Origin: a bacterium
GTDB taxonomy: Bacteria > Eisenbacteria > RBG-16-71-46
Assembly (NCBI GenBank): GCA_043779265.1
Contig: JAYWEM010000180.1
Coordinates: 1 to 32,267 of the forward strand
DNA length: 32,267 nucleotides
Direction: 5' to 3'
Under the pieces are notes generated by a model, which worked only from the letters and a program-made list of their open reading frames with translations, did not search any database and had not been told where the DNA came from. The translations under genes were made by a program, and so were the position numbers. Of this stretch, positions 12,135-32,267 are shown in pieces; the stretch's first letter is position 1, and every line of letters begins with the position of its first letter.

Positions 12135-12204
12135 CCGGGCGAGTGTCCATAGCCGCCCCCGGGCCCCGTGTCCGTCCGACCTCCCCCCAGCCAGGAGCCC
12201 GAAC

Positions 12205-12963
12205 ATGTCCCTGCCGCTCGATGCACCGGTGTCGTCGGAGAGCCAGGACGGGTCGCCGCTCTCCTTCCTCCAACGAGTCGGCCGTGTCTTCACGGACCCC
12301 GCGAACGCGTGGTCCGGGCTCGGAGCGAAGCCGCAGTTCCTCCTGCCGCTTCTCGTGACCATGCTGTTCAGCCTCGCGTCGACGGCCATCCTCTACCCGC
12401 GCGCCATCGTCCCGATGCAACTCGAGCAGATGGAAATGCAGGTCCTGAATGGCCAGATGCCGCCCGAGTCATTCGATCGGGCTGTCGAGATGATCGACTC
12501 CCCGATGATGATGGGCGTCACGCTCGTGATGGTCGTGCTCGGTACCCTGTTGTTCTATCTGGTCGCCGCAGGGACGATCGGATTCGGCGTGGGATTCGTT
12601 CTCGGCTGCAAGCTGCGATTCCGTTCGGCATTCGAGGTCGTGGTCTGGGCCGGACTCGTGACATTGCCCGGGGCCGTGATCCACTCCGTGATGGGCTGGT
12701 TCCAGCAGACGATGGACGTCCGCCTGAGCCCGGCCGTGCTGCTTCCTGCGATGAGCGAGGCGAGCAAGCTGGAGGCGGGTCTGATCTCGTTCTTCCAGTG
12801 GATGAACCCCTTCAGCCTGTGGTTCCTCGCCGTCACGATCATCGGTGCGAGCGTGCTCTCCGGGGCACCCCGCAAGAACGTGACCTGGGTGCTGGCCGGG
12901 CTCTATGTGGCGTTCGCGATCGTCCTTTCCGCGGTCGCCATGATGTTCGCGCCGGGGGCGTGA
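12205..12963 (+). CDS. Yip1-family (YknW-like) multi-pass membrane protein
   Basis: RVGRVFTDPANAWSGL..KP..LLPLL N-terminal Yip1 pattern, about five TM helices, NPFSLW motif. AGGAG RBS, ATG 12205. Confidence 0.8.
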   Translation: MSLPLDAPVSSESQDGSPLSFLQRVGRVFTDPANAWSGLGAKPQFLLPLLVTMLFSLASTAILYPRAIVPMQLEQMEMQVLNGQMPPESFDRAVEMIDSPMMMGVTLVMVVLGTLLFYLVAAGTIGFGVGFVLGCKLRFRSAFEVVVWAGLVTLPGAVIHSVMGWFQQTMDVRLSPAVLLPAMSEASKLEAGLISFFQWMNPFSLWFLAVTIIGASVLSGAPRKNVTWVLAGLYVAFAIVLSAVAMMFAPGA

Positions 12964-13058
12964 CGCCGCGCGTGCAACCCCGTAGACCAATGACCCGTAT
13001 CCATGAGCGCCGCCGGGGACGTCCCGCGGTGACCTACTCAGAGAGGAGTGTCCCGAGG

Positions 13059-14432
13059 ATGCGTCCCGTCCTTCCCGCCCTCACCCTGCTGCTGGCAGTG
13101 GCAAGTGCCTCACCCGCCCGATCGGCGGATCTCACCGCGGATGAGGCGGTGCGGATCGCCTTGCTCCGCAACTCCCAGGCGATCTCAGCCGAGGCGTCGG
13201 TGCTCGATGCGCGCGGCGGCCTGTGGGGCGCGTACGCGGGAGTGCTCCCGAGCGTCTCGGCCAACTATAGCTACACCCGCACGGTCGCCGACCCCTCGGA
13301 TCGCACCCAGACGACCTATTTCGGACCGGTCCCGGTGGACTACCGCACGATCTCGTCCACCAGCACGACCACGTCCCCGAGCATCACCGGTCGTTGGTCG
13401 CTGATCGACCTGTCGTCCTGGAGCAGCCTGTCCTCGGCACGCCAGGGAATGGCAGCGGCACAGGCCTCTCGCCAATCCACGCGGCAGGACGTGATCCTCG
13501 AGACTCGCCGACGATTCTACGACGTGGTCCGGTCGTGGCGGCTCGCCGAGGTCTCGGCCGGCGCTCTGAGGCTGGCCCGCGATGACGAGCGGCGCGTTCG
13601 CGCGCTGTTCGAGGTCGGGTCGGTCTCGAAGAGCGACCTGCTCAAGGCTCGAGTGCGGACATCGCAGAGCGAACTCGATTCGCTGGTGAGCCGCAATGCG
13701 GTCACCAATATGCGCATCTCGCTGGCCTCATTCCTCGGTGTCGCCGAGTCGGAGATGAGCGCGGTCGACACGGCGCTCATCAGCGTGAAGCGGGTGTACG
13801 AGCCGGCTGCAGTGCTGGCCGATGCCCGCGCATCGCGGCCCGATCTCGAGGCGGCGGATCGGCAGGTGAAGGCGGCGCAGGCGGGGCTCAATGCCGCTCG
13901 CTGGCGCCGGCTCCCGTCACTCGATCTGAGCGCATCGGCGAGCTTCCCCTCGAAGACCAAGAGCGAATCGGAAGTGGCCTTCGCCGACAGCAATGGCGTG
14001 TTCTCGGATCGCCAGGTGCAGGACGTCGAGAACACGTCGGATACGCGCTATTCGGCGACGCTCGGATTCAGCATGCCGATCTTCGACGGCTTCGCGACCG
14101 ACGCGCAGACCGCTTCGGCGCGCGCGCGCTTGTTGCGGACGCGTGAAACCCGGGACGCGCTCGTCCGTAATCTGGAGAGTGAAGTGCGTCAGGCGCTGCT
14201 GCAGTACCAGGAAGCCACGGAGCGTGAAGTGCTCGGCCGCCGGACGCTCGAGTCCGCCGCCGAGAACCTCAACCTGGTTCAGCAGAAGTACAACGTCGGA
14301 TCTTCCACGATCCTCGAGCTGATCGACGCACAAGTTCAGCTCCAGCGGGCCCAGAGCGATCTGGTCTCCGCCATGGCCGCCATCCGTGTCGCTGACGCCA
14401 CGCTCGATCGCGTGCGCGGCCGCGGCGAGTGA
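13059..14432 (+). CDS. TolC-family outer-membrane efflux protein
   Basis: Signal peptide; LTADEAVRIAL; FEVGSVSKSDLLKA; RPDL; PIFDG; KYNVGSSTILELIDAQ. GAGGAG RBS, ATG 13059. Confidence 0.92.
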   Translation: MRPVLPALTLLLAVASASPARSADLTADEAVRIALLRNSQAISAEASVLDARGGLWGAYAGVLPSVSANYSYTRTVADPSDRTQTTYFGPVPVDYRTISSTSTTTSPSITGRWSLIDLSSWSSLSSARQGMAAAQASRQSTRQDVILETRRRFYDVVRSWRLAEVSAGALRLARDDERRVRALFEVGSVSKSDLLKARVRTSQSELDSLVSRNAVTNMRISLASFLGVAESEMSAVDTALISVKRVYEPAAVLADARASRPDLEAADRQVKAAQAGLNAARWRRLPSLDLSASASFPSKTKSESEVAFADSNGVFSDRQVQDVENTSDTRYSATLGFSMPIFDGFATDAQTASARARLLRTRETRDALVRNLESEVRQALLQYQEATEREVLGRRTLESAAENLNLVQQKYNVGSSTILELIDAQVQLQRAQSDLVSAMAAIRVADATLDRVRGRGE

Positions 14433-14448
14433 ATCGAGGAGTGAACCG

Positions 14449-15735
14449 ATGAAGCTGAAGCCCTGGGTCTGGTTCGTCGCCGGAGGAGTGGTGGTGGTGG
14501 CGTTGATCGTCATCGGCGCCATGCAGAGCAACAAGGGGAAGGTCGAGTCGGTGCAGTTGGCTCGCGTGCGGTTGGAGGACGTGACGTCCCGCGTGCGCGC
14601 ACCGGGCAAGATCGAGCCGAAGACGCAGGTGAAGATCAGTGCCGACATCGCCGGCAAGGTGCTCGACCTCCGGGTCAAGGAGGGCGACCGCGTCAAGCGC
14701 GGCCAGCTCATGCTCCAACTGGACGACACGCAGTACCGCGCGTCCCATCGCCAGGCTCAGGCGGGGCTGGCCTCGGCCAAGGCCCGTCTGCGTGAGGCGG
14801 AATCGTCGCTGCGCGTGAGCGACGCCAACTTCGAGCGTCAGCGCACGCTGTTCCAGCAGCGCCTGCTCTCGCAGGCCGAGTGGGATGCGGCATCGAGCGT
14901 GAATGAGGGCGCCCGCGTCGCGGCCGCCACGGCTCGCGAGGACGTGGCGCGCGGCCAGGCGTCGCTCGAGTCCACGGCGGACTACCTCTCCAAGTGCCGC
15001 TTCCTGGCGCCGTTCGATGGCGTTGTCAGCGCACTGAACGTCGAGGAAGGGGAGACCGTCATCACGGGCACGATGAACAACCCCGGCTCGCAGATCATGG
15101 TTGTCTCGGATCTCTCGCGCATGCTGGTCCGTGCCGAAGTCGATGAGACGGATGTCGTGGACATGCGCATCGGACAGAAGACGCGCATCACGGTGGATGC
15201 CTATCCCGACACCCATTTCGTCGGAATGGTCACCACGATCGGAAATACGGCGAAGCGGTCGCTGACGTCGTCAGTCGAAGGGCAGACGAACTTCGAGGTC
15301 GAGGTCGTGTTCGCCGAGGACGTGCCCGGCGTCCGTCCCGGCATGACGGCCGACGTCGACATCGAGACCGGCACGCATGCCGGGACACTCGCCGTGCCCA
15401 TCCAGGCTGTGGTCATCCGGACGGAGCGCGAGCTCGAGCGGGCCAAGCTGGGCGGCAAGGGCAAGCCCAAGGCCAAGCGTGGTGCGGCGATCGCCGCCGA
15501 GGACGACACCGTCGGCAAGAAGGACAAGGAGATCGCGGGCATCTTCATCGTCGAGAACGATGTCGCCAGGTTCGTGCGGGTGCGCACGGGACTTGCCAGC
15601 GAGACCATGATCGAGGTTCTGGGAGAGGTCACCGAGGGCAGCTCGGTGGTCTCGGGACCGTACAAGGCGCTTCGCGAACTGAAGCCGGGCGGCAAGGTCA
15701 AGCGGGAGACCGTCACCGCCACCGGTCGCAAGTGA
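14449..15735 (+). CDS. MacA/YknX-like periplasmic adaptor (membrane fusion protein)
   Basis: N-terminal TM; lipoyl halves [12 protein letters not shown] and APFDGVV; coiled hairpin; [29 protein letters not shown]. Confidence 0.93.
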
Positions 15736-15739
15736 GCGC

Positions 15740-16459
15740 ATGATGCTGATCGAGATCCGTGACCTGCATCGCGTCTATCAAGTCGGAGACCAGGAGGTGC
15801 GCGCGCTCGATGGCGTGGACCTCGACATCCGGCAGAACGAGTATCTCGCGATCATGGGCCCCTCGGGCTCCGGCAAGTCGACGCTCATGAACATCATCGG
15901 CTGCCTCGACACGCCAACGCAGGGCTCCTATCGCCTCAAGGACAAGGAGATCGCAACGCTCACGGATGACGAGTTGGCGCGAATCCGGAACCAGGAGATC
16001 GGATTCGTCTTCCAGACGTTCAATCTGCTGGCTCGCGCCGATGCTCTGCACAACGTCGAGCTGCCGCTCGTCTATGCCGGCCTCAAGCATGAGGAGCGGC
16101 GGAGGCGTGCCAAGGAGGCGTTGACGTTGGTCGGGCTGGGCGATCGCATGATGCACAAGCCGAACGAGCTCTCGGGCGGTCAGCGTCAGCGCGTGGCGAT
16201 CGCGCGTGCACTCGTCAACAAGCCGAGCATCATCCTGGCGGACGAGCCGACGGGGAACCTCGACTCCAAGACCGGTGACGACATCATGACGGCGTTCCAT
16301 GGCATCTGGAGCGCCGGGAACACGGTGATCCTCGTCACCCACGAGGCTGATGTGGCGGAGCACGCCCACCGTATCGTGCGCGTGAAGGACGGGCGCATCG
16401 AGAGCGACACGGTCAACCCGAACCCGCGTGGTGCCTCCGCGAGCGGGGCGCACGCGTGA
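15740..16459 (+). CDS. MacB/LolD-type ABC transporter ATP-binding protein
   Basis: Walker [18 protein letters not shown], signature [15 protein letters not shown], Walker [15 protein letters not shown] switch. Confidence 0.95.
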
Positions 16460-17673
16460 ACCTCCGAGAGAGCGTCGGGATCGCCCTCGCCGGGCTGCGG
16501 GCCAACAAGCTCCGCTCGTTCCTGACGCTGCTCGGCACGATCATCGGCGTGGCCTCGGTCATCGCGGTCGTGTCGTTCGTCGAGGGCATGAACCAGTTCG
16601 TCACGCGGAAGCTCCTGAACGCTGGCGCGAACGTGTTCGTCGTCGACAAGTACGGCTTCATCACGAGTGAGGAGGCGTGGGAGGAGGCTCAGAAGCGTCC
16701 GGACGTGACGCTCGACGATGCTCAGGCGCTTCGAGAGGGTGTCGCCCATGCCTCCATGGTCGTGGCTCAGGCCAACGGGAGCGCGCCCGTCCGATATCGC
16801 GCCAAGTCGATGAAAGGGGTCTCGCTCAACGGGCGTGGTCCTGGCTATGAGGTGGTGGACGATCAGGCCATCGGGTTCGGCCGCCATCTGACGCACGTCG
16901 ACGATTCGAATCGCAGGCTGACGTGCGTGATCGGATCCGAGGTCGCCGAGGAACTGTTCGGCAATCTCGATCCCATCGGCAGGCGGATCCGGGTCGACCG
17001 ATGGGAGTTCGAAGTCGTGGGCGTGACCGCGGCGAAAGGCAAGGTTTTCGGGCAGAGCCAGGATCGTTTCGTCACCGTCCCCATCCATACGTTCCAGAAG
17101 TACTGGCAGGAGCGCGGGTCCTTCGCGATCGCCGTCAAGAGCATCGATCAGGCCTCGCTGCCCCGGGCCGAGCAGGAGGCGCGCAACATCCTCCGCTCGA
17201 TGCGCCATCAGAGGCCGGGTCAGCCCGACCAGTTCGGCATCACGACCTCGGAGACCTGGCTCGAGCTCTACCGCAACCTCACGGGCGGGATCTTCGTCGT
17301 CTCGATCGGTGTCGCGGCGATCTCGCTGCTCGTCGGGGGGATCGTCATCATGAACATCATGCTCGTGTCCGTGACCGAGCGGACCAAGGAGATCGGCATC
17401 CGCAAGGCGCTTGGCGCGAGGAGACGGGACATCATGACGCAGTTCCTCGTCGAGTCGACGACGCTCTCGCTGGCCGGCGGCATTCTCGGGATCATCGCCG
17501 GCGGCTCGCTGGCGCTCGGGGTGGGATTGATCAGCCCACTCCCGGCAGCCGTGAGTGCTCCGGCGATCATCATGGGACTCGTCATGAGCACGGTGGTCGG
17601 GATGTTCTTCGGCTCCTATCCAGCGTACCGCGCCGCGCAACTCGATCCCATCGACGCCCTCCGGTACGAGTGA
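16456..17673 (+). CDS. MacB/FtsX-family ABC permease (type A1, 405 aa)
   Basis: [21 protein letters not shown]; periplasmic core; [47 protein letters not shown]. Confidence 0.93.
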
Positions 17674-17675
17674 CC

Positions 17676-18947
17676 ATGCGCACCTCCGACCTGCTTCGCG
17701 AGACGTTCCAGATGGCCCGGGCCGCGCTGTTGGCCAATCGCCTCCGCTCGATGCTGGCGCTGCTCGGCATTGTCATCGGCGTCGGCACCGTGATCGGCAT
17801 GGTCTCGTTGATCAATGGCTTCCAGAAATCGTTCCAGGACAGCATCCAGTCCTTCGGCAACAACACGCTCTACATCCGGCGCATCCGTCCCGGCATCCGA
17901 ATCAATGGGGACTTCCCGGACAGCCTGAGGCTCCGCAAGGCGTTCACCATGGACGACGCGAGGGCCATCATGGCTGGCGCGCCCGCCGTCAAGGCCATCG
18001 CACCATTCAAGTGGCCGTGGGATGACATCCGTCTTCGCCATCGCGACAAGCGGACCAAGACGACATTCTGCTACGGCACGAATCAGGAGTACCTGACGAC
18101 GCACAGCTACGACCTCGCTGCGGGACGATTCTTCACCGAGGAGGAGGTCCAGCGGAGCGCCAATGTGGTCGTGCTCGGAAAGGACACGCGTGAGGCTCTG
18201 TTCGGGGACGGTTCGGGCGTCGGTAAGACCGTCCATCTGAACGGGATTCCGTTCACGGTGCTCGGGGAGTTCGAGAAGAAGGGCAAGTTCCTCGGGAACA
18301 ACTTCGACGAAGTGGCCTGTGTTCCCTACACCGTCGTGGACAAGTACTGGACCGCTCCGCCATCGGCTCCACCCTGGGTGCCGAGGAAGGGCGAGTTGTT
18401 CCTCGACGCGATTGCCGTGTCGCCGGATCAGAGCGAGGCCGCGATGCTGCAGATCGGCGAGGTCCTCCGTGTCCGCCGCCAACTCCCGAGTAACAAGTTG
18501 AACGACTTCGTCGTGTTCAGTGACGATGCCTTCCTCTCGCTCTACAACACGGTCACCGGCGGGATCGTGGCGCTGATGACACTGATCTCCTCGATCTCGT
18601 TGCTCGTGGGTGGCATCGGCGTCATGAACATCATGCTGGTGGCCGTCACGGAGCGCACCCGGGAGATCGGTGTGCGCAAGGCCCTCGGGGCCCCGCGCAA
18701 GGCGATCCTGCTTCAGTTCCTCGTCGAGTCCGTGATGCTCACCGCCGTCGGCGGGGTGCTCGGAATCCTGCTGGGAGCGGGCGTCTCGGGGTTGGTACGG
18801 GCGCTGAGTCCATTGCCCACATTCGTCTCGCCGTGGTCGGTGATCCTGGCGCTGGGTTTCTCGGCGGTGGTCGGCGTGTTCTTCGGGCTCTACCCGGCGA
18901 TGCGCGCTTCTCGATTGGACCCGGTGGAGTCTCTGCGCTACGAATAG
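17676..18947 (+). CDS. MacB/FtsX-family ABC permease (type B1, 423 aa)
   Basis: ANRLRSMLALLGIVIGVGTVI; VGGIGVMNIMLVAVTERTREIGVRKALGA; LDPVESLRYE. ATG 17676. Confidence 0.93.
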   Translation: MRTSDLLRETFQMARAALLANRLRSMLALLGIVIGVGTVIGMVSLINGFQKSFQDSIQSFGNNTLYIRRIRPGIRINGDFPDSLRLRKAFTMDDARAIMAGAPAVKAIAPFKWPWDDIRLRHRDKRTKTTFCYGTNQEYLTTHSYDLAAGRFFTEEEVQRSANVVVLGKDTREALFGDGSGVGKTVHLNGIPFTVLGEFEKKGKFLGNNFDEVACVPYTVVDKYWTAPPSAPPWVPRKGELFLDAIAVSPDQSEAAMLQIGEVLRVRRQLPSNKLNDFVVFSDDAFLSLYNTVTGGIVALMTLISSISLLVGGIGVMNIMLVAVTERTREIGVRKALGAPRKAILLQFLVESVMLTAVGGVLGILLGAGVSGLVRALSPLPTFVSPWSVILALGFSAVVGVFFGLYPAMRASRLDPVESLRYE

Positions 18948-18953
18948 CAGCGC

Positions 18954-20171
18954 ATGAACATCCGCGAGAGTGCGGGACTCGCCCTTGAAGCCCTGAGAAC
19001 GCATGTGCTCCGCACCGCGCTCACGTTGCTCGGTGTGATCATCGGTGTTTCCTCGGTGATCGTCGTGATGTCGGTGGTTCAGGGGCTCGATCGCTATGTG
19101 GCCGATCAGGTCTCCTCGGCGGGCGGCGACGTGTTCACCATCGATCGAGTCGGATTCGAGTTCGACTTCACCAAGGTGCGCGACAAGTTGAAGCGCGCGC
19201 CCATCGATCCCGACGTGGCCGCGATCATCCAGAGCGTCGGCGTCCACATCGAGGCCGCGGTGGCGGGCGAGAGCTCCTCGAAGACGATCCGCTCCGGACG
19301 CCGCCAGCTGCGCCGCGTGTCGGTTCAGGGCAAGCAGCCCGGCTACATGGAGGTGGAGGACCTGCCGGTCGCGCGGGGCCGTCCGCTCGATGCCCGCGAT
19401 GAGCAGTCCAGAGCATCGGTCTGCGTGCTCGGGGCCGACCTGCTCGAGGACCTCTATCCGAATCTCGATCCCCTCGGCTCCGAGATCCGGATCGGATCCC
19501 ATCGCTACACGGTGGTCGGGATCGGCGAGCGGAAGGGCTCCTCGTTCGGTCAGAGTCAGGATCTCTACGTGCTCGTGCCCTACTCCACCTGGCGCAAGCA
19601 GAACGGTCGTGGCGGATCGGCCGCGATCACGGTCAAGGCGAAGGGACCCGAGCACTATGCGCAGGCGCAGGAGGAGGCTCGCGCCATCTTGCGCACGGCT
19701 CGCGGTGTCCGTCCCGGAGCCCCCGATGACTTCGAGCTCGTGACGCCCGAGATGTACCTCGGTCTATGGCGCAACCTCTCCGGCGCCATCTCGATCGTGA
19801 TCGTCGGCGTCTCGCTGATCTCCCTTCTCGTCGGCGGCATCGTGATCATGAACATCATGTTGGTCTCGGTCACCGAGCGGACGAAGGAGATCGGCATCCG
19901 CAAGGCACTTGGAGCGACGCGGCGCGATATCCTGACGCAGTTCCTCATCGAGGCGATGACGCTGTCGGCACTGGGAGGCGCGATCGGACTCCTGCTGGGT
20001 TGCGGCGTCACGCTGCTGCTCGGAGCGCTGACGCCTCTGCCGGCGTTCATCAGCCCGGTGGCGGTGGTGCTCGGGCTCCTGAGCGCCACGCTCGTCGGGG
20101 TCTTCTTCGGTGCCTATCCCGCAGCACGAGCGGCGCGCCTCGACCCGATCGAAGCGCTCCGGTACGAATGA
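18954..20171 (+). CDS. MacB/FtsX-family ABC permease (type A2, 405 aa)
   Basis: [57 protein letters not shown]. Confidence 0.93.
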   Translation: MNIRESAGLALEALRTHVLRTALTLLGVIIGVSSVIVVMSVVQGLDRYVADQVSSAGGDVFTIDRVGFEFDFTKVRDKLKRAPIDPDVAAIIQSVGVHIEAAVAGESSSKTIRSGRRQLRRVSVQGKQPGYMEVEDLPVARGRPLDARDEQSRASVCVLGADLLEDLYPNLDPLGSEIRIGSHRYTVVGIGERKGSSFGQSQDLYVLVPYSTWRKQNGRGGSAAITVKAKGPEHYAQAQEEARAILRTARGVRPGAPDDFELVTPEMYLGLWRNLSGAISIVIVGVSLISLLVGGIVIMNIMLVSVTERTKEIGIRKALGATRRDILTQFLIEAMTLSALGGAIGLLLGCGVTLLLGALTPLPAFISPVAVVLGLLSATLVGVFFGAYPAARAARLDPIEALRYE

Positions 20172-21442
20172 TGAGCCCACGCGTACGCGACATGTTCGGT
20201 GAAGTGGTCTCGATGGCATTGCGTGCCCTGCGCGCCAATCGCATGCGCTCGCTCCTGACGACGCTCGGGATCGTGATCGGGGTCGGCACGGTCGTGGCGA
20301 TGACGAGCATCATCCAGGGATTCGATCGCACGGTTCAGCTCTCGATCTCGTCGTTCGGTTCGCATGTGATCTACATGCGCAAGGCCCGTCCCGGGGCGTT
20401 CAACCCCGACTTGATCGACAGCGTCCGCCGCACCCAGGCCTTCACGGTGGAGGACGCCGAGGCGCTGCGCCGCCGCTGCCCGGACGTGAAGGGCGTCTCC
20501 ATCATCGGATTCGTCGAAGCCGCGAAAGTGAGCTACCGGGGCCGGAGTTCGCGCGGCATCCAGATCATCGGTTCCGACCCCTCGATCCAGGAGGTGAACT
20601 CCTACGATCCCTGGGTGGGGCGGTTCTTCACCGAGGAGGAGGTGCGCCGTCGCGCTCAGGTGGCGGTCGTCGGGAAGTCGATTCGAGACGATCTCATGGG
20701 AGGGATCGATCCCATCGGTCGGATCCTCCACGTCAACGGCGTGCCTTTCCGCATCGTCGGGGAATTGGAGCCCAAGGGACGCTCACTCTTCTTCAATCCC
20801 GACGAGATCCTCACGATCCCGTACACGACGATGACCAAGCTCTTCCCGCCGGGTCCAGACGCCTCGTTCTTCGTTCCCGCCAAGGGGCAGTACTACTTGA
20901 ATGCCGTGGCTGTGGAGCCCGAGCGGACCGCCGCCGCAGTCGACCAGATCGTGGATGTGCTCCGGCAGCGCCGGGGGCTGACGCACCGCCGACCCAACAA
21001 CTTCGCGGTGTTCACCGAGGAGGCCCTGTCGGAGCTCTACAACCAGATCACGGGGGCGACGTTCGTCGTGATGCTGCTCGTCTCATCGATCGCGCTGCTC
21101 GTGGGCGGGATCGGCGTGATGAACATCATGCTGGTGGCCGTGACGGAGCGAACGCGCGAGATCGGTCTACGCAAGGCGGTCGGCGCGCCGAGGCGCACGA
21201 TCCTGCTGCAGTTCCTGCTCGAGGCGGTGTTCCTGACGACGGTGGGAGGGGCGATCGGCCTCGCCGCCGGTGCCGGCATCGCCCAGGTCGTGCGCATCTT
21301 CACGGCGCTGCCGGCCTACACGCCGCTGTGGGTGGTGGTGCTTGCCTTCGGATTCTCCGCGGCAGTCGGCGTGTTCTTCGGGCTCTATCCGGCGGTGCGC
21401 GCCTCGCGGCTCGATCCGGTCGAGGCACTGCGGTGGGAGTGA
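20168..21442 (+). CDS. MacB/FtsX-family ABC permease (type B2, about 424 aa)
   Basis: ANRMRSLLTTLGIVIGVGTVV; VGGIGVMNIMLVAVTERTREIGLRKAVGA; LDPVEALRWE. ATGA overlap with the previous stop. Confidence 0.93.
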   Translation: MMSPRVRDMFGEVVSMALRALRANRMRSLLTTLGIVIGVGTVVAMTSIIQGFDRTVQLSISSFGSHVIYMRKARPGAFNPDLIDSVRRTQAFTVEDAEALRRRCPDVKGVSIIGFVEAAKVSYRGRSSRGIQIIGSDPSIQEVNSYDPWVGRFFTEEEVRRRAQVAVVGKSIRDDLMGGIDPIGRILHVNGVPFRIVGELEPKGRSLFFNPDEILTIPYTTMTKLFPPGPDASFFVPAKGQYYLNAVAVEPERTAAAVDQIVDVLRQRRGLTHRRPNNFAVFTEEALSELYNQITGATFVVMLLVSSIALLVGGIGVMNIMLVAVTERTREIGLRKAVGAPRRTILLQFLLEAVFLTTVGGAIGLAAGAGIAQVVRIFTALPAYTPLWVVVLAFGFSAAVGVFFGLYPAVRASRLDPVEALRWE

Positions 21443-26707: not shown

Positions 26708-26737
26708 TTGACCCTGCTTGAGGCAGGCGGATAACTT
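26708..26737 (+). promoter_or_regulatory. Putative sigma70-type promoter for gcvT
   Basis: TTGACC (26708-26713), 18 nt spacer, TAACTT (26732-26737), about 35 nt upstream of the GTG start. Confidence 0.5.
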
Positions 26738-26771
26738 CGGGCGGTTCGGACCTTCACCCAGAGGACATCGC

Positions 26772-27881
26772 GTGCAACCCTCTTCCGCTCTGCGCCGCAC
26801 CCCCTTCCATGCCCATCATCAAGCGGCCGGGGCGAAACTCATGGATTTCGCCGGTTTCGAGATGCCGGTCCGCTACACGGGCGACGTCCGTGAGCACCAG
26901 GCTGTGCGAACCGGTGTCGGGCTCTTCGACATCAGCCACATGGGCGAGTTCGAGGTGTGTGGCCCGGGGGCCACCGAGTACCTCGACCGTGTGGTCACCA
27001 ATCATGTCGCGGCGCTCGAGGTGGGGCAGGCGCTCTATTCGCCCATGTGCCGGCCGGATGGCGGCATCGTGGACGACCTGCTCGTCTATCGGTATGCGGG
27101 CCACCACATGGTGGTGGTGAACGCCTCGAACATCGCGAAGGACCTGGCCTGGATGCTGGAGCACAAGCCGGCCTCGGTCACGCTGACGGATCGATCCGAC
27201 GAGACCGCGCTCCTCGCCGTGCAGGGGCCGCGCGCCGCGGATCTGCTGAGACCGCACGTCCCCGCCGAAGCCCTGGAGCTCGGCTACTATCGCTTCACGC
27301 TCGCCACGCTGTTCGGTGCGCCAGTGACGCTCTCGCGCACGGGCTACACGGGCGAGGATGGTTTCGAGATCTACGTCGCTCCCGAGTATTCAGATGCGGT
27401 GTGGCAGGGCGTGACGGCCGCGGGTCAGGCGCACGGGCTCGAACTCGTCGGACTCGGGGCGCGCGATACGCTGCGACTCGAGATGGGCTACATGCTCTAC
27501 GGCAATGACATCACGGACTCGACCACGCCTCTCGAAGCCGGTCTCGGTTGGACGGTGAAACTCCAGAAGGGTGAGTTCCACGGCAGCGAGGTGATGCTGA
27601 AGCAGAAGGCCGAGGGCTTGAAACGCCGACTGGTCGGATTCCAACTGGAGGGTCGCCGTGTCCCTCGCCACGGGATGCCCATCTTCGCCGACGGCCGACA
27701 GGTGGGAGAGGTGACGAGCGGGACCTACAGTCCGACGCTCGAACGTCCCATCGGGATGGGCTATGTCGAGAAGGCGCATGCTGCCACGGGCGGATCGCTC
27801 GAGATCCATGCGGGCAGCAGTCAGCTCGCCGCGCGGGTGACCGCGCGGCCGTTCTACACACGCGGTTCACATCGTTCGTGA
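26772..27881 (+). CDS. gcvT: Glycine cleavage system aminomethyltransferase T
   Basis: LRRTPF, FAGFEMPVRY, GLFDISHMGE, SRTGYTGEDGFEI, GLGARDTLRLEMG, GEVTSGTYSP. GAGGA RBS, GTG 26772. Confidence 0.95.
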   Translation: MQPSSALRRTPFHAHHQAAGAKLMDFAGFEMPVRYTGDVREHQAVRTGVGLFDISHMGEFEVCGPGATEYLDRVVTNHVAALEVGQALYSPMCRPDGGIVDDLLVYRYAGHHMVVVNASNIAKDLAWMLEHKPASVTLTDRSDETALLAVQGPRAADLLRPHVPAEALELGYYRFTLATLFGAPVTLSRTGYTGEDGFEIYVAPEYSDAVWQGVTAAGQAHGLELVGLGARDTLRLEMGYMLYGNDITDSTTPLEAGLGWTVKLQKGEFHGSEVMLKQKAEGLKRRLVGFQLEGRRVPRHGMPIFADGRQVGEVTSGTYSPTLERPIGMGYVEKAHAATGGSLEIHAGSSQLAARVTARPFYTRGSHRS

Positions 27882-27897: not shown

Positions 27898-28287
27898 GTG
27901 ACGTATCCCGATGATGTGCGCTACACCCGCGAACACGAGTGGGTCCGAGAGGCCTCAGGCGTTCTCACGATCGGCGTGACGAGTTATGCCACCGACCAGT
28001 TGGGCGATGTCGTCTTCGTCGAGCTGCCGGATGCGGGTCGCTCGATCGAATCCGGCAAGCCGTTCGGCGTGGTCGAGGCGGTGAAGACCGTGAGCGACCT
28101 CTACGCGCCGATTGCCGGTGAGGTGGTCGAGGTCAACGCCGCACTCGCCGACAATCCCGCGCTGGTGAATCAGGACCCTTACGGCGAGGGCTGGATGATC
28201 CGTGTCCGCCCGAGCGATCCGACGGCCATCCAGTCCCTGCTCACGGCTGCGGACTACGAGAAGCACGTGGAGGAATCGCACGCGTGA
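27898..28287 (+). CDS. gcvH: Glycine cleavage system H protein
   Basis: YTREHEW, QLGDVVFVELP, lipoyl Lys in VEAVKTVSD, NQDPYGEGW. AGGAGG RBS, GTG start. Confidence 0.96.
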   Translation: MTYPDDVRYTREHEWVREASGVLTIGVTSYATDQLGDVVFVELPDAGRSIESGKPFGVVEAVKTVSDLYAPIAGEVVEVNAALADNPALVNQDPYGEGWMIRVRPSDPTAIQSLLTAADYEKHVEESHA

Positions 28288-28354: not shown

Positions 28355-28801
28355 ATGCTGGCCGTGGCAGACGTTTCACGGGTGGAGGCGGCCGAGACGG
28401 TCACCTGGCAGTACGACCCTTGGGCGGAGAAGCCGCAGGTCGCGTGGATCGCGGCGATCGCCGCGCTGCTGCTGTGCGTGCTCGTCGTGAACCTCGAAGA
28501 GTCGTTCCTCGTCAGCGTCGGACTGTGCCTCTTCTGTGTCGGCGCGTTCGCGCCTGCGCTGTCACGCGTCGAGTGCCGGATCGACCCGAATGGCGTCGCA
28601 CGCCGGGGTTGGCTCGGCTGGGAGCGACGTGACTGGAGCATGTTGCGTCGGATGGACCGGCTCCCCGCGGGAGTGCTCGTCTCGCCCTACAGCAAGCGCA
28701 ATCTCCTCGACAGTGCGCGCGGGATGGTCCTGCCGATGCCCGCGAACCGTCGCGAGGAACTGACGCGTCTCGTGACCGATGCACTGGAGCGATCACGATG
28801 A
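28355..28801 (+). CDS. Hypothetical membrane protein (TM hairpin plus bacterial PH-like C-terminal domain)
   Basis: Two hydrophobic helices, then ECRIDPNGVARRGWLGWERRDW (bPH/YcxB-like pattern, inference). Its stop overlaps the next ATG. The start is uncertain (28352, 28355 or 28364). Confidence 0.65.
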   Translation: MLAVADVSRVEAAETVTWQYDPWAEKPQVAWIAAIAALLLCVLVVNLEESFLVSVGLCLFCVGAFAPALSRVECRIDPNGVARRGWLGWERRDWSMLRRMDRLPAGVLVSPYSKRNLLDSARGMVLPMPANRREELTRLVTDALERSR

Positions 28802-29124
28802 CCGATGCGCCCGCGTTCTTACCGGAGGATCAGGCCCTACTCGAGCGCCTCGCGGACCGCGTCGTCGAGTTGCGCATCGAGACGGCGGCGATCCTGACGC
28901 TCGAGACCGCCAAGCCGATGTCGTTCCTCGCCTCGCAGGCGATGGTCTTCTTCGAACCGATCGTGCAGTCGCTGTTCCGATTCACCGACTACCAGCGACT
29001 CTCGCGCCTGCTCGAACGGCGTGACACGCTCGAGTCGCTCACTCAGCTCATCGAGGTCCGCGCCGAGGCACGCCACCGTGCTCGTCGAACCCCGGCAGCC
29101 TCCGACCGACAGGAACCCCAGTGA
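28798..29124 (+). CDS. Small helical hypothetical protein
   Basis: 108 aa with GGAG RBS; ATGA and GTGA overlaps on both sides; amphipathic sequence LLERLADRVVELRIETAAILTLETAKPMSFLASQ. Confidence 0.8.
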   Translation: MTDAPAFLPEDQALLERLADRVVELRIETAAILTLETAKPMSFLASQAMVFFEPIVQSLFRFTDYQRLSRLLERRDTLESLTQLIEVRAEARHRARRTPAASDRQEPQ

Positions 29125-30956
29125 ACCCCGAGATCATCCCGAAGAACATCCGCTCGATCCTCGCGACCGACTGCGGGTCGACGACCACGAAGGCCGTGCT
29201 CATCGAGCGGCGTGAGGAGGGTTTCCGCCTCGTCACCCGTGGGGAGGCCCCGACGACCGTGGAGGCGCCCTTCGAGGACGTGACGCGAGGCGTGTTGAAC
29301 GCGGTGAAGGAGGTCGAGGAACTCCGCGGCCGTCGGCTGCTCGACGGCGAACGCATCCTGACGCCGCAGCAGGGCGAGGACGGCGTCGACCTTTACTTGT
29401 CGACATCGAGCGCGGGCGGCGGCCTCCAGATGATGGTCTCGGGCCTGGTCATGCAGATGACCGGCGAGAGCGCGCAGCGAGCTGCGCTCGGCGCGGGCGC
29501 CATCGTGATGGATGTCATGGCGCTCAACGACGGGCGTAAAGATCACCAGAAGATCCAGCGCATGCGCCAACTGCGCCCCGACATGATCCTGATCTCGGGT
29601 GGCACCGACGGTGGCGACGTGAAGCGAGTCTGCGAGATGGCCGAGCTCCTCGCCGCCGCGGACCCCAAGGCCCGGCTCGGAGCGGGCTACGAGCTTCCGG
29701 TGATCTTCGCCGGCAACAAGGATGCGGCGCCGTTCGTCGTCGACCTGCTCGCCAAGAAAACGGCGCTTCTCGTGGTCCCGAACCTGCGGCCCAAGCTGGA
29801 ACAGGAGAACCTCCAGCCCGCTCGCGACGCGATCCATGACCTGTTCATGGAGCACGTCATGGCGCACGCGCCCGGATACAAGAAGCTCATGACGTGGACG
29901 CCCGTGCCGATCATGCCGACACCAGGTGCCGTCGGGCTCATCATCGAGAAGGTCGCCAAGCGAGATGGTATCGCCGTCGTCGGTGTGGATATCGGCGGGG
30001 CGACGACCGACGTGTTCTCGGTCTTCCGTGTGCCGGAGAACGAGGAGACCGTGTTCAACCGCACGGTCTCGGCCAACCTCGGCATGAGCTACTCGGTCTC
30101 CAATGTCATGGCGGAAGCCGGCATCGAGAACATCCTCCGCTGGGTGCCGTTCCCGGTCGACGAGGTCGAGCTTCGCAATCGGATCAAGAACAAGATGATC
30201 CGGCCCACGACGATCCCGCAGACACTCGACGATCTCGTGATCGAGCAGGCGATCTGCCGAGAGGCGCTCCGCCTCTCGTTCGAGCAGCACAAGTCGCTGG
30301 CCGTGGGACTCAAGGGCAAGCAGACGGCACGCGACATCTCCGACACGTTCGATCAATCGGCGTCGGGCTCGACGCTCGTCAACCTGCTCGACTTGGGGCT
30401 ACTGGTCGGCTCCGGCGGCGTGCTCTCGCACGCGCCGCGCCGCGCTCAGTCCGCACTCATGATGGTGGATGCGTTCCTGCCCGAGGGCATCACCGAACTG
30501 GCCGTGGACAGCATCTTCATGACGCCGCAGCTCGGCGTGCTCTCGACCGTGCATGAGGAGGCTGCGACGCAGGTGTTCGAGCGCGACTGCCTCATCCTAC
30601 TGGGTCCGTGCGTCGCGCCGATCGGTGCAGGTAAGCCAGGTCAGCGTTGTGTGTCGGTGGAGGTGAAGCTCCCCGACGGCAAGACGGAGACTCGAGAGGT
30701 CCCCTTCGGCGAACTCGTCCTGTTGCCCATCCCGGCGGAAGGGCGCCTGCAACTGACCGTGACGCCCGACCGCTCGTTCGACATGGGAGCCGGCAAAGGC
30801 AAGCCCGTCTCGCGCGACGTGCGCGGCGGGGTTGTGGGACTGATGATCGACACGCGCGGCCGTCAGCCGTTCGTGCTGCCGACCGACTCGAGCAAGCGGA
30901 TCGATCGCCTGCGCGCCTGGAACCGTGCGCTCTCGTTGTATCCGCGGGAGGTGTGA
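29121..30956 (+). CDS. GlmL/MutL-like (glutamate mutase L family) ASKHA-fold ATPase
   Basis: Phosphate-1 ATDCGSTTTKA, SSAGGGL, PDMILISGGTDGG, IFAGNK, IMPTPGAV, phosphate-2 VDIGGATTDVFS, adenosine motif VGSGGVLSH, all characteristic of GlmL. It has a C-terminal extension. Confidence 0.85.
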   Translation: MNPEIIPKNIRSILATDCGSTTTKAVLIERREEGFRLVTRGEAPTTVEAPFEDVTRGVLNAVKEVEELRGRRLLDGERILTPQQGEDGVDLYLSTSSAGGGLQMMVSGLVMQMTGESAQRAALGAGAIVMDVMALNDGRKDHQKIQRMRQLRPDMILISGGTDGGDVKRVCEMAELLAAADPKARLGAGYELPVIFAGNKDAAPFVVDLLAKKTALLVVPNLRPKLEQENLQPARDAIHDLFMEHVMAHAPGYKKLMTWTPVPIMPTPGAVGLIIEKVAKRDGIAVVGVDIGGATTDVFSVFRVPENEETVFNRTVSANLGMSYSVSNVMAEAGIENILRWVPFPVDEVELRNRIKNKMIRPTTIPQTLDDLVIEQAICREALRLSFEQHKSLAVGLKGKQTARDISDTFDQSASGSTLVNLLDLGLLVGSGGVLSHAPRRAQSALMMVDAFLPEGITELAVDSIFMTPQLGVLSTVHEEAATQVFERDCLILLGPCVAPIGAGKPGQRCVSVEVKLPDGKTETREVPFGELVLLPIPAEGRLQLTVTPDRSFDMGAGKGKPVSRDVRGGVVGLMIDTRGRQPFVLPTDSSKRIDRLRAWNRALSLYPREV

Positions 30957-30957
30957 C

Positions 30958-32082
30958 ATGGCGCATTCCTACACGCCGGGGTTGAGGGTCACGTCTCACG
31001 CTCTCGTCCGCCGCGAACGTCGTCTTCCGCTCAAGGGCGAGGTGCTGGTCCAGGCCGGCGCTCAAGTCGAGCCGGACACCGTCGTCGCCAGGACGCAGCT
31101 GCCCGGCAACGTCCAGACGGTGAACGTCGCAGCGAAGTTGTCCGTGGATCCGGCCAAGTCGGCCGAGACGCTGCTGCACCCGCTCGGAACGCTGGTCAAG
31201 AAGGGACAGCCGATCGCGAGTGCCAAGAGCCTGTTCGGACTGATGAAGAGCCAGATCGAGTCACCCGCCGATGGCACGATCGAGAGTGTCTCCTCGGTGA
31301 CCGGCCAGCTCATCCTGCGTGAGCCGCCCATCCCCGTCGAAGTGCAAGCCTATGTGCGAGGTCGCATTTCCGAGGTGCTGGCGGGCGAGGGCGTCGTCGT
31401 CGAGTCGCAGGGTGCCCTGATGCAGGGCATCTTCGGCGTCGGGGGCGAGACCTTCGGCCCGATCGCCGTTGCGGTGAGCCGCGCGGATGAGGTGCTGGGG
31501 CCCTCGCATCTCAAGCCGGAGCATCGCGGTGCCGTGGTGGTGGGCGGCGCGTACGTCGCGCATGACACGCTCATGCGAGCCAAGGAGATCGGGGTCGCGG
31601 CCGTCGTGGTCGGTGGATTCGATGATCACGACCTCAAGCGACTGCTCGGCAAGGACCTGGGCGTCGCGATCACCGGGCAGGAGGACCTCGGCTTCACGCT
31701 GGTGCTGACCGAGGGCTTCGGTCACATCCCGATGGCCGATCGGACGTTCCGCATGCTGCAGGACCATGTCGGTCACGTGGCCTCCGTGAGTGGCGCGACT
31801 CAGATCCGCGCCGGCGTGATGAGGCCGGAGATCCTGATCCCGCGCGATGATGCCGGCGCTGCCAGGCCGAGCGAGGACTCCGAAGGCGGTCTCGAGATCG
31901 GAGCACTGATCCGCGTGATCCGTCAGCCTTACTTCGGTCGCCTCGGCAAGGTAGTCGAGCTGCCGCCCGAGCTGCAGGCGCTCGACAGCGAGGCCCGTGT
32001 GCGCGTGCTGCGCGTCGCGTTCGAGGGCTCACAGGAGTCCGTGCTGGTGCCTCGCGCCAACATCGAGCGGATCGCCGATTGA
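30958..32082 (+). CDS. Hypothetical protein with barrel-sandwich hybrid motifs and a C-terminal KOW-like motif
   Basis: GGAGG RBS, ATG 1 nt after the glmL-like stop; GEVLVQAGAQV and GTLVKKGQPIA...IESPADGTIESV (hybrid motif); C-terminal LEIGALIRVIRQPYFGRLGKVV (KOW-like). Confidence 0.8.
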   Translation: MAHSYTPGLRVTSHALVRRERRLPLKGEVLVQAGAQVEPDTVVARTQLPGNVQTVNVAAKLSVDPAKSAETLLHPLGTLVKKGQPIASAKSLFGLMKSQIESPADGTIESVSSVTGQLILREPPIPVEVQAYVRGRISEVLAGEGVVVESQGALMQGIFGVGGETFGPIAVAVSRADEVLGPSHLKPEHRGAVVVGGAYVAHDTLMRAKEIGVAAVVVGGFDDHDLKRLLGKDLGVAITGQEDLGFTLVLTEGFGHIPMADRTFRMLQDHVGHVASVSGATQIRAGVMRPEILIPRDDAGAARPSEDSEGGLEIGALIRVIRQPYFGRLGKVVELPPELQALDSEARVRVLRVAFEGSQESVLVPRANIERIAD

Positions 32083-32267
32083 GTCGATGGCTGTGGCCCT
32101 GTTCGGGCCGCGGCCAGTTCCACGAGAGCTGCGACTGTGACTTCCGTGGCCGTTCTCGGCCGTCTGACACCCGTCAAGCCATTTGAGAAGGTAACCCTGC
32201 TGGGTATCGTCAAGCCGTTTGCGATGTCACCCGGTTCTGGCGGTCTTCTGGCGCCCGACCTCGTAGA

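Follow-up and report, generated by a model that had tools for sequence, protein, structure and literature searches.

An ASKHA ATPase gene beside gcvT-gcvH in an Eisenbacteria genome belongs to a conserved eight-gene set

Results and discussion

Four genes at a contig end are the first half of an eight-gene set

The window analyzed here is the whole of contig C180 (32,267 nucleotides), which is part of a 3.4-Mb genome assembly that is 92% complete and for which the nearest named homologues carry the label Candidatus Eisenbacteria. Near its right end, four closely packed genes that we call A, B, C, and D follow gcvT and gcvH (Table 1), with kbl and tdh located further upstream. A first-pass annotation had proposed that these genes constitute a four-gene module of unknown function around an orphan GlmL-like ATPase. 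Indeed, the four open reading frames (ORFs) lie where it placed them, with the same ATGA (A/B) and GTGA (B/C) junctions and a 1-nucleotide gap between C and D, and each gene is present as a single copy in this genome. However, the system extends beyond these four genes. Because the window is an entire contig, the module is truncated at the contig end, and four more genes (E, F, G, and H), which encode predicted membrane proteins, open contig C195 (L081) of the same genome. The window genes are therefore the first half of an eight-gene set.

Table 1. Positions of the module genes and adjoining features in the window
Feature	Position	Strand	Description
Gene A, 148 amino acids (aa)	28355-28801	+	Two predicted membrane helices, then a bacterial-PH-like domain; accessory
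Gene B, 108 aa	28798-29124	+	Small soluble protein without a family; core gene that precedes C or follows D
Gene C, 611 aa, GTG start	29121-30956	+	ASKHA (actin/Hsp70-fold) ATPase, PF13941 family
Gene D, 374 aa	30958-32082	+	ATPase partner with barrel-sandwich hybrid, swivelling beta/beta/alpha, and KOW domains
gcvT	26718-27881	+	Module context, non-member
gcvH	27898-28287	+	Module context, non-member
Left end of multi-copy insertion sequence (IS)-like element	32170-32267	.	Between D and the membrane genes; contig depth 25-26, versus 8-10 for unique DNA
5-bp target duplication of the IS-like element	32165-32169	.	Matching 5-mer at the right end on C195

Genes E through H were found by clustering the ORFs of loci that contain gene D. 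A scan of species-representative genomes with D gave 445 confirmed relatives, from which 80 loci were kept, and co-occurrence was counted in the 47 loci with at least 3 kb of upstream and at least 5 kb of downstream sequence, leaving out 33 shorter loci. Genes B through H are found together in 37 of the 47 well-flanked loci, which represent many phyla. When genes are counted separately, E through H are present in 41 of these loci, C in 39, B in 38, and A in 13, making A an accessory rather than a core member. Genomes in which the genes are split still carry both halves: among 50 hand-chosen genomes carrying D, taken from the 80 loci, all 50 match PF13941 (the family of C) and 49 match DUF6754 (PF20539, the family of E). 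An even sample of the phylum likewise revealed D in 136, DUF6754 in 134, and PF13941 in 131 of 151 genomes. Thus, conservation of an ATPase-centered gene set in other genomes and its association with the membrane, both of which the first-pass annotation had envisaged, are borne out by the co-occurrence of B, C, and D with the predicted membrane genes. At one locus (L120:8047-10020), a DUF6785/DUF6784 membrane protein is encoded directly upstream of A-B-E-F-G-H, and C and D are located elsewhere in the genome.

The window proteins encoded by A and B have no Pfam match. Gene A exhibits two hydrophobic segments by hydropathy, and three of eight homologues pass the bPH_6 cut-off, consistent with its earlier description as a membrane protein with a PH-like domain.

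An IS-like element probably separates D from the membrane genes

The two contigs appear to be separated by a repeat, as judged from contig depths in two public assemblies of one study, either of which may have given rise to this DNA. Window positions 32170-32267 and C195 positions 1-99 lie on repeat contigs with a depth of 23-26, versus 8-12 in unique DNA. The element ends, which together with the target duplication span window 32165-32267 and C195 1-104, carry imperfect terminal inverted repeats as well as internal repeats, and the 5-mer TGACA both precedes the left end and follows the right end of the element. Another copy of the element in those assemblies has its own matching pair, GTCCC. 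From the repeat depth, the inverted repeats, and the matching 5-mers, we infer that C180 and C195 are neighbors and that insertion of an IS-like element between D and E duplicated 5 bp of target; the contigs have no direct sequence overlap, and the interior of the element is absent from the assembly. The insertion may be polar on E through H. The suggestion to look beyond position 32267 for further conserved partners was therefore fruitful, with the qualification that they reside on a separate contig, past the IS-like element.

The membrane cassette is multiplied relative to the ATPase

In the other orders of the phylum, 293 DUF6754 matches were found in 79 genomes (up to 9 per genome), versus 89 PF13941 matches in 73 genomes (1-3 per genome), and this asymmetry recurs across several families. 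DUF6754 genes do not multiply by themselves: F, G, and H lie beside E in 16 of 18 hand-picked DUF6754 loci, the other two being cut by contig ends. One genome carries six E-F-G-H cassettes and one ATPase match. The fact that the cassette is multiplied and the ATPase remains near single copy suggests that one shared energizer serves several membrane units. Genome G024 (L112, L113) has three PF13941 and three DUF6754 matches, and there E-F-G-H precedes C-D.

The ATPase is separate from GlmL and Or-4

The assignment of C to the ASKHA ATPases holds. Its PF13941 match scores 425 bits (cut-off 27) and covers residues 13-490, and its phosphate-1 (residue 15), phosphate-2 (residue 289), and adenosine (residue 430) motifs are intact and nearly invariant across 28 homologues. 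It also has a C-terminal extension of ~120 aa. Source databases label ATPases of this type "glutamate mutase L". However, C scores below the curated cut-offs for NF040745 (227 bits versus 475), NF040744 (216 versus 600), and TIGR01319 (166.5 versus 204), and its identity to annotated GlmL- and Or-4-type proteins is ~26-31% (tblastn).

For phylogenetic comparison, 7 of 10 tblastn hits served as reference rows; all come from annotated records, six being of the glmL type and one linked to an aminomutase. These seven split from 57 C-type rows with a Shimodaira-Hasegawa-like approximate likelihood ratio test (SH-aLRT) value of 99 in a quick tree with long branches; the C-type rows were retrieved via C or D, so the sample is not unbiased. 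Placement of the window C in a forced clade with six GlmL rows was rejected by the approximately unbiased (AU) test (p-AU 0.00137; 31 rows, quick tree). C belongs to a long clade apart from GlmL and Or-4.

The distribution of vitamin B12-dependent enzymes was also surveyed. GlmE (PF06368) has no match in this genome and none above the cut-off in the 50 carrier genomes, which gave two weak sub-threshold matches, and the positive control was detected in four of five records. The lysine/ornithine aminomutase family PF09043 is absent from this genome and present in just 3 of the 50 carrier genomes, with controls detected, and EutB was not found in a search whose control was detected. No match to the PF02286 dehydratase family was obtained in the genome, in a search whose positive control was silent too. 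Other B12 enzymes are encoded on other contigs, namely two PF01642 genes and B12-binding domains, and no B12 enzyme family was recognized among the recurring neighbors of the module. As originally noted, neither gcvP nor a B12 mutase family is present among the 16 window proteins scanned; lpd, also reported as missing, had no dedicated search.

The scores, the separate clade, the lack of GlmE, and the absence of adjoining glmS or glmE led us to reject GlmL as the identity of C. Or-4 was rejected because of the NF040744 score and the absence of PF09043 here, and an ethanolamine-lyase reactivase because of the EutB result. Thus, the earlier proposal of an ATPase that is not tied to glutamate mutase is upheld both by the tree and by co-occurrence. 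Searching the PDB by sequence, whether with C itself or with profiles built from C, D, E, and G, returned nothing below an E value of 0.01. Two C homologues, P0243 (1304 aa) and P0249 (1332 aa), have a large N-terminal region that by eye ends in a hydrophobic segment before the ATPase, and one of them includes a metallopeptidase-like motif, also by eye.

D is a multidomain partner of the ATPase

Fusions were surveyed in the 150 best representatives of 3845 profile hits at an E value of 0.001 or better. A D-like region follows the ATPase in the same chain in 45 of these 150, and one natural B-C fusion (P0269) is also among them. Similarly, the Atlas contains a cluster of 92 PF13941-bearing proteins, ~876 aa in length, which aligns to D with a template modeling (TM) score of 0.90. 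Because C and D are often one polypeptide, the two proteins are considered partners.

The structural model of D (predicted local distance difference test, pLDDT, 88) agrees with the barrel-sandwich and KOW portions recognized in the first-pass annotation and reveals a swivelling domain that it had overlooked. Residues ~50-123 are modeled as barrel-sandwich hybrid domains. Residues 152-299 form the swivelling beta/beta/alpha domain, which matches Enzyme I of the phosphotransferase system (PTS) with a VIA Z of 9.3 (root mean square deviation 2.8 over 108 residues), rifampin phosphotransferase with a Z of 8.9, and RraA with a Z of 8.6; residues 308-374 form a C-terminal KOW barrel with a NusG/Spt5-like fold (Z 8.1 to Spt5 KOW), and all of these Z values are modest and are evidence of fold only. 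Foldseek gave no whole-chain match for D or for G.

Two carrier functions for D were rejected. As a lipoyl/biotinyl carrier, D has a sub-threshold Biotin_lipoyl score (20.3 bits; cut-off 22.1), and the candidate residue Lys90, which is Lys in 40 of 51 rows and Arg in eight, is not invariant and ends a strand rather than occupying the tip of a tight turn. The adjoining loop (residues 91-96) is hydrophobic, and the hairpin tip L-F-G-L lies within a conserved basic-hydrophobic sequence, K-x-L-F-G-L-F-K, that may contact the membrane. As a PTS Enzyme I-type phosphohistidine carrier, D would presumably use His224, a position we assigned by assuming the phosphohistidine spacing GG-x-x-x-H, and this residue occurs in just 7 of the 51 sequences of D and is not retained in fused forms. 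The sole conserved His is residue 3, and T239 and T281 are invariant. The N-terminal eight residues are highly conserved yet poorly predicted in the monomer model, a combination that would fit a docking peptide.

The membrane half

Gene E matches DUF6754 at 370 bits, and F, G, and H match no family in Pfam or NCBIfam. Hydropathy predicts two helices in the C-terminal part of E, six in F, two in G, and at least four in H. In both E and G, two helices flank a domain of ~200 residues, and the two proteins show opposite Lys/Arg bias, which would place the domain of E in the cytoplasm and that of G outside. In profile comparisons, E and G are the best of 28 pairs, with an E value of 0.0036 (0.0057 with more rows), and the best of 20 block shuffles gave 0.024. 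In the model of G (pLDDT 93.6), two long helices accompany a Rossmann-like alpha/beta domain, and an Atlas search with G returned unnamed clusters alone. The N-terminal region of E is variable, ranging from absent to ~650 aa; it has no match in Pfam but by eye resembles fibronectin III.

A redox ion pump of the Rnf/Nqr type was considered and is not supported, because E through H have no family matches and too few conserved ligand residues (one Cys in E and one His in G at 90% conservation), and because the likeness of D to RnfC/NqrA spans just ~65 residues of the barrel-sandwich domain. Loci L119 and L123 carry an extra gene between E and F, which in L119 encodes a beta-helix/FlgD-Ig protein.

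A possible ATP-driven energizer and its alternatives

Gene linkage, fusion, folds, and copy numbers form the observed basis of a model that we favor tentatively and rate somewhat short of an even chance. In this model, B, C, and D constitute an ATP-driven energizer that drives transport through E-F-G-H, and A is an optional membrane accessory. C would bind and hydrolyze ATP, and the swivelling domain of D would transmit the resulting change in the ATPase, as in the B12 dehydratase reactivase. The docking site for the C-D unit, perhaps with B, would be the cytoplasmic domain of E, which is highly conserved. As distant paralogues in opposite orientations across the membrane, E and G would form the pathway together with F and H. 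One energizer would serve several cassettes, as in group II energy-coupling factor (ECF) transporters, where one shared ATPase module serves several separately encoded membrane units. Within this model, the E-F-G-H unit is probably a transporter, and more specifically an importer. Slightly less likely is the broader proposal that the set represents an unrecognized class of primary active transporter, in which an actin/Hsp70-fold ATPase and its swivelling partner, akin to the reactivases of B12 enzymes, energize interchangeable four-subunit cassettes containing two oppositely oriented paralogues. Known ATP-driven transport in bacteria relies on ATP-binding cassette (ABC)/ECF, P-type, F/V-type, or AAA/RecA motors, and we know of no transport driven by an actin/Hsp70-fold ATPase.

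A weak lead to the substrate comes from neighboring opp genes, which hint at peptides or amino-acid-like solutes. On C195 (L081:3627-10420), H is immediately followed by an LplA-like gene and a full oppA-B-C-D-F operon, and opp genes lie within 10 kb of the module in four of eleven lineage groups. These groups were assigned by gene order and record labels. The LplA profile also caught Opp proteins, and the counts of lipoate and opp neighbors were taken from a separate tally.

Several results weigh against the transport model. No opp genes lie near the module in the remaining seven lineage groups, and the neighbors of extra cassettes are mixed, with no common substrate. In the order to which the window belongs, each positive genome (55 genomes) has one DUF6754 match, and the 1:1 ratio of cassette to ATPase makes sharing unnecessary there. 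Draft assemblies give match counts rather than exact copy numbers, and related taxa are not independent. No membrane subunit resembles a known transporter: for the soluble domain of G, the fold is Rossmann-like but generic, with a best Z of 9.9, a Foldseek TM <0.4, and no close structure. The topology of E through H derives from simple hydropathy and a charge count. The paralogy of E and G is weak (HH probability 6-9%), and paralogy between F and H was sought and rejected, with E values of 0.16-0.23.

The strongest alternative, which we consider unlikely, is that C-D is a reactivase-like remodelling chaperone that assembles, swaps, or resets subunits of an enzyme or scaffold formed by E-F-G-H. 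The nearest named relatives of C are accessory chaperones: PMC4682846 describes MutL/GlmL as a chaperone that reactivates glutamate mutase. PMC7674605 describes the glycerol dehydratase reactivase, whose structure it names as PDB 1NBW, as an Hsp70-like ATPase with a swivelling domain that drives subunit swapping; when ATP is hydrolyzed, a subunit is freed from that domain. One chaperone with many paralogous clients would also fit the copy numbers, and E has many invariant polar residues (for example C203, D204, E210, and E211 of the aligned part). However, no catalytic family or cofactor-binding set was found among E through H, and the membrane subunits would seem to resemble a symmetric pathway more than an enzyme.

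A signaling role is considerably less probable. Here, E-F-G-H would be a transmembrane receptor with variable outer sensing domains, and C-D a nucleotide switch acting, for example, through the KOW domain of D. The range of the E N-terminal region, the NusG/Spt5-like fold with which D ends, and the multiplied cassettes are all consistent with this idea. However, the module loci share no conserved gene for a regulator or DNA-binding protein, KOW/SH3-like barrels are common, and several copies of E have almost no outer domain.

Slightly further down the scale of plausibility, the module might serve lipoate-dependent metabolism, either by importing lipoate or octanoate or through D as a lipoyl/biotinyl carrier, a reading that comes near the glycine connection of the first-pass annotation. 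In Eisenbacteria-type loci, the module lies between gcv genes and the LplA-like gene, and a lipoate-related neighbor is present in 22 of 24 such loci. The module adjoins lipA in three of four Nitrospira loci, a lipoate-related neighbor occurs in one of four loci in one other group, and gcvH or lplA is near the module in two other loci. The Biotin_lipoyl score of D and its common Lys90 can be read in the same direction. Against this, no lipoate gene lies near the module in any of 26 Marinimicrobia-like loci or in seven other small groups, and the substitution and placement of Lys90 beside a hydrophobic hairpin tip do not suit a carrier. Moreover, one vitamin would hardly account for as many as nine diverged cassettes in a genome. 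Lipid-synthesis genes lie near the module in two lineage groups, and no neighbor is general to the module.

Many ASKHA proteins are kinases, and the best matches of the middle domain of D are phosphohistidine domains, which raises the prospect of a PTS-like phosphorelay in which C phosphorylates the swivelling domain of D and the phosphate passes to the membrane unit for group translocation. The scarcity of a suitably spaced His makes this very improbable, with a phospho-Thr or phospho-Asp variant still conceivable given the invariant T239 and T281. Finally, the idea that C is an ordinary or relocated reactivase of a B12 enzyme (glutamate mutase, aminomutase, or a methylmalonyl-CoA-mutase-like protein), which draws on its PF13941 match, its database label, and the PF01642 and B12-binding genes of this genome, is largely refuted by the missing partner enzymes, the rejected GlmL clade, and the lack of B12 families among recurring neighbors.

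Relation to known systems

C has the same ASKHA core and motifs as GlmL/MutL and Or-4. It differs from GlmL/MutL in length (611 versus ~460 aa) as well as in curated scores and clade, and in place of adjoining glmS/glmE or aminomutase genes its module includes an obligate partner, D, and a membrane cassette. The alpha subunit of the diol/glycerol dehydratase reactivases (DdrA/GdrA) shares with C plus D the pairing of an ATPase and a swivelling domain, often in one chain, although the likeness is one of architecture only and these proteins gave no sequence match to C among PDB chains. Unlike in DdrA/GdrA, the swivelling domain of D is flanked by barrel-sandwich and KOW domains, and the partner set is membrane-bound. 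The relative copy numbers of C and the E-F-G-H cassettes, from which the comparison with group II ECF transporters is drawn, would fit the shared-energizer pattern of those systems. ECF transporters, in contrast, use ABC ATPases with T and S components rather than an ASKHA protein, and the four-protein unit matches no ECF family in Pfam or NCBIfam. The assignment of E to PF20539 supplies a family label only.

No paper describing DUF6754, PF13941, or this module was found in the literature searched (subscription journals and supplements lay outside it). The individual domains are known; the system as a whole matches no described kind that we found. Even if C-D turned out to act as a chaperone that remodels a membrane complex, this composition would match no described system found. 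Roughly nine in ten genomes sampled from the phylum carry the module, as do many other, mostly uncultured, lineages. The "glutamate mutase L" label on C misleads metabolic reconstructions. The set of seven or eight genes, with its natural fusions, is directly expressible and testable.

The gcv context and other genes of the window

The window itself explains an apparent replacement of gcvP and provides an example of an IS insertion that splits the operon. The first-pass annotation had remarked that the module sits where gcvP should be. Among 16 related loci with gcvT-gcvH, 14 have gcvPA/PB between gcvH and A, and two (L004 and L031) lack them, like the window. Because most of these relatives keep gcvPA/PB upstream of A, the position of the module next to gcvH is best read as a local loss of these genes. 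The notion of the module as a stand-in for gcvP was rejected: most of the relatives carry both, and this genome encodes a single-chain, 952-aa gcvP elsewhere, on contig C181 (L082:1207-4065). The suggested link to conversion of Thr to Gly and C1 units fares no better, as gcv neighbors are almost confined to Eisenbacteria-type loci. The single-chain gcvP on C181 may be a replacement from another source, since most related loci have the two-subunit gcvPA/PB.

Farther upstream in the window, at positions 12168-21442, where some ORF calls overlap and start positions are uncertain, genes for an outer-membrane efflux protein, a membrane-fusion protein, an ABC ATPase, and several tandem MacB/FtsX permeases precede uvrA.

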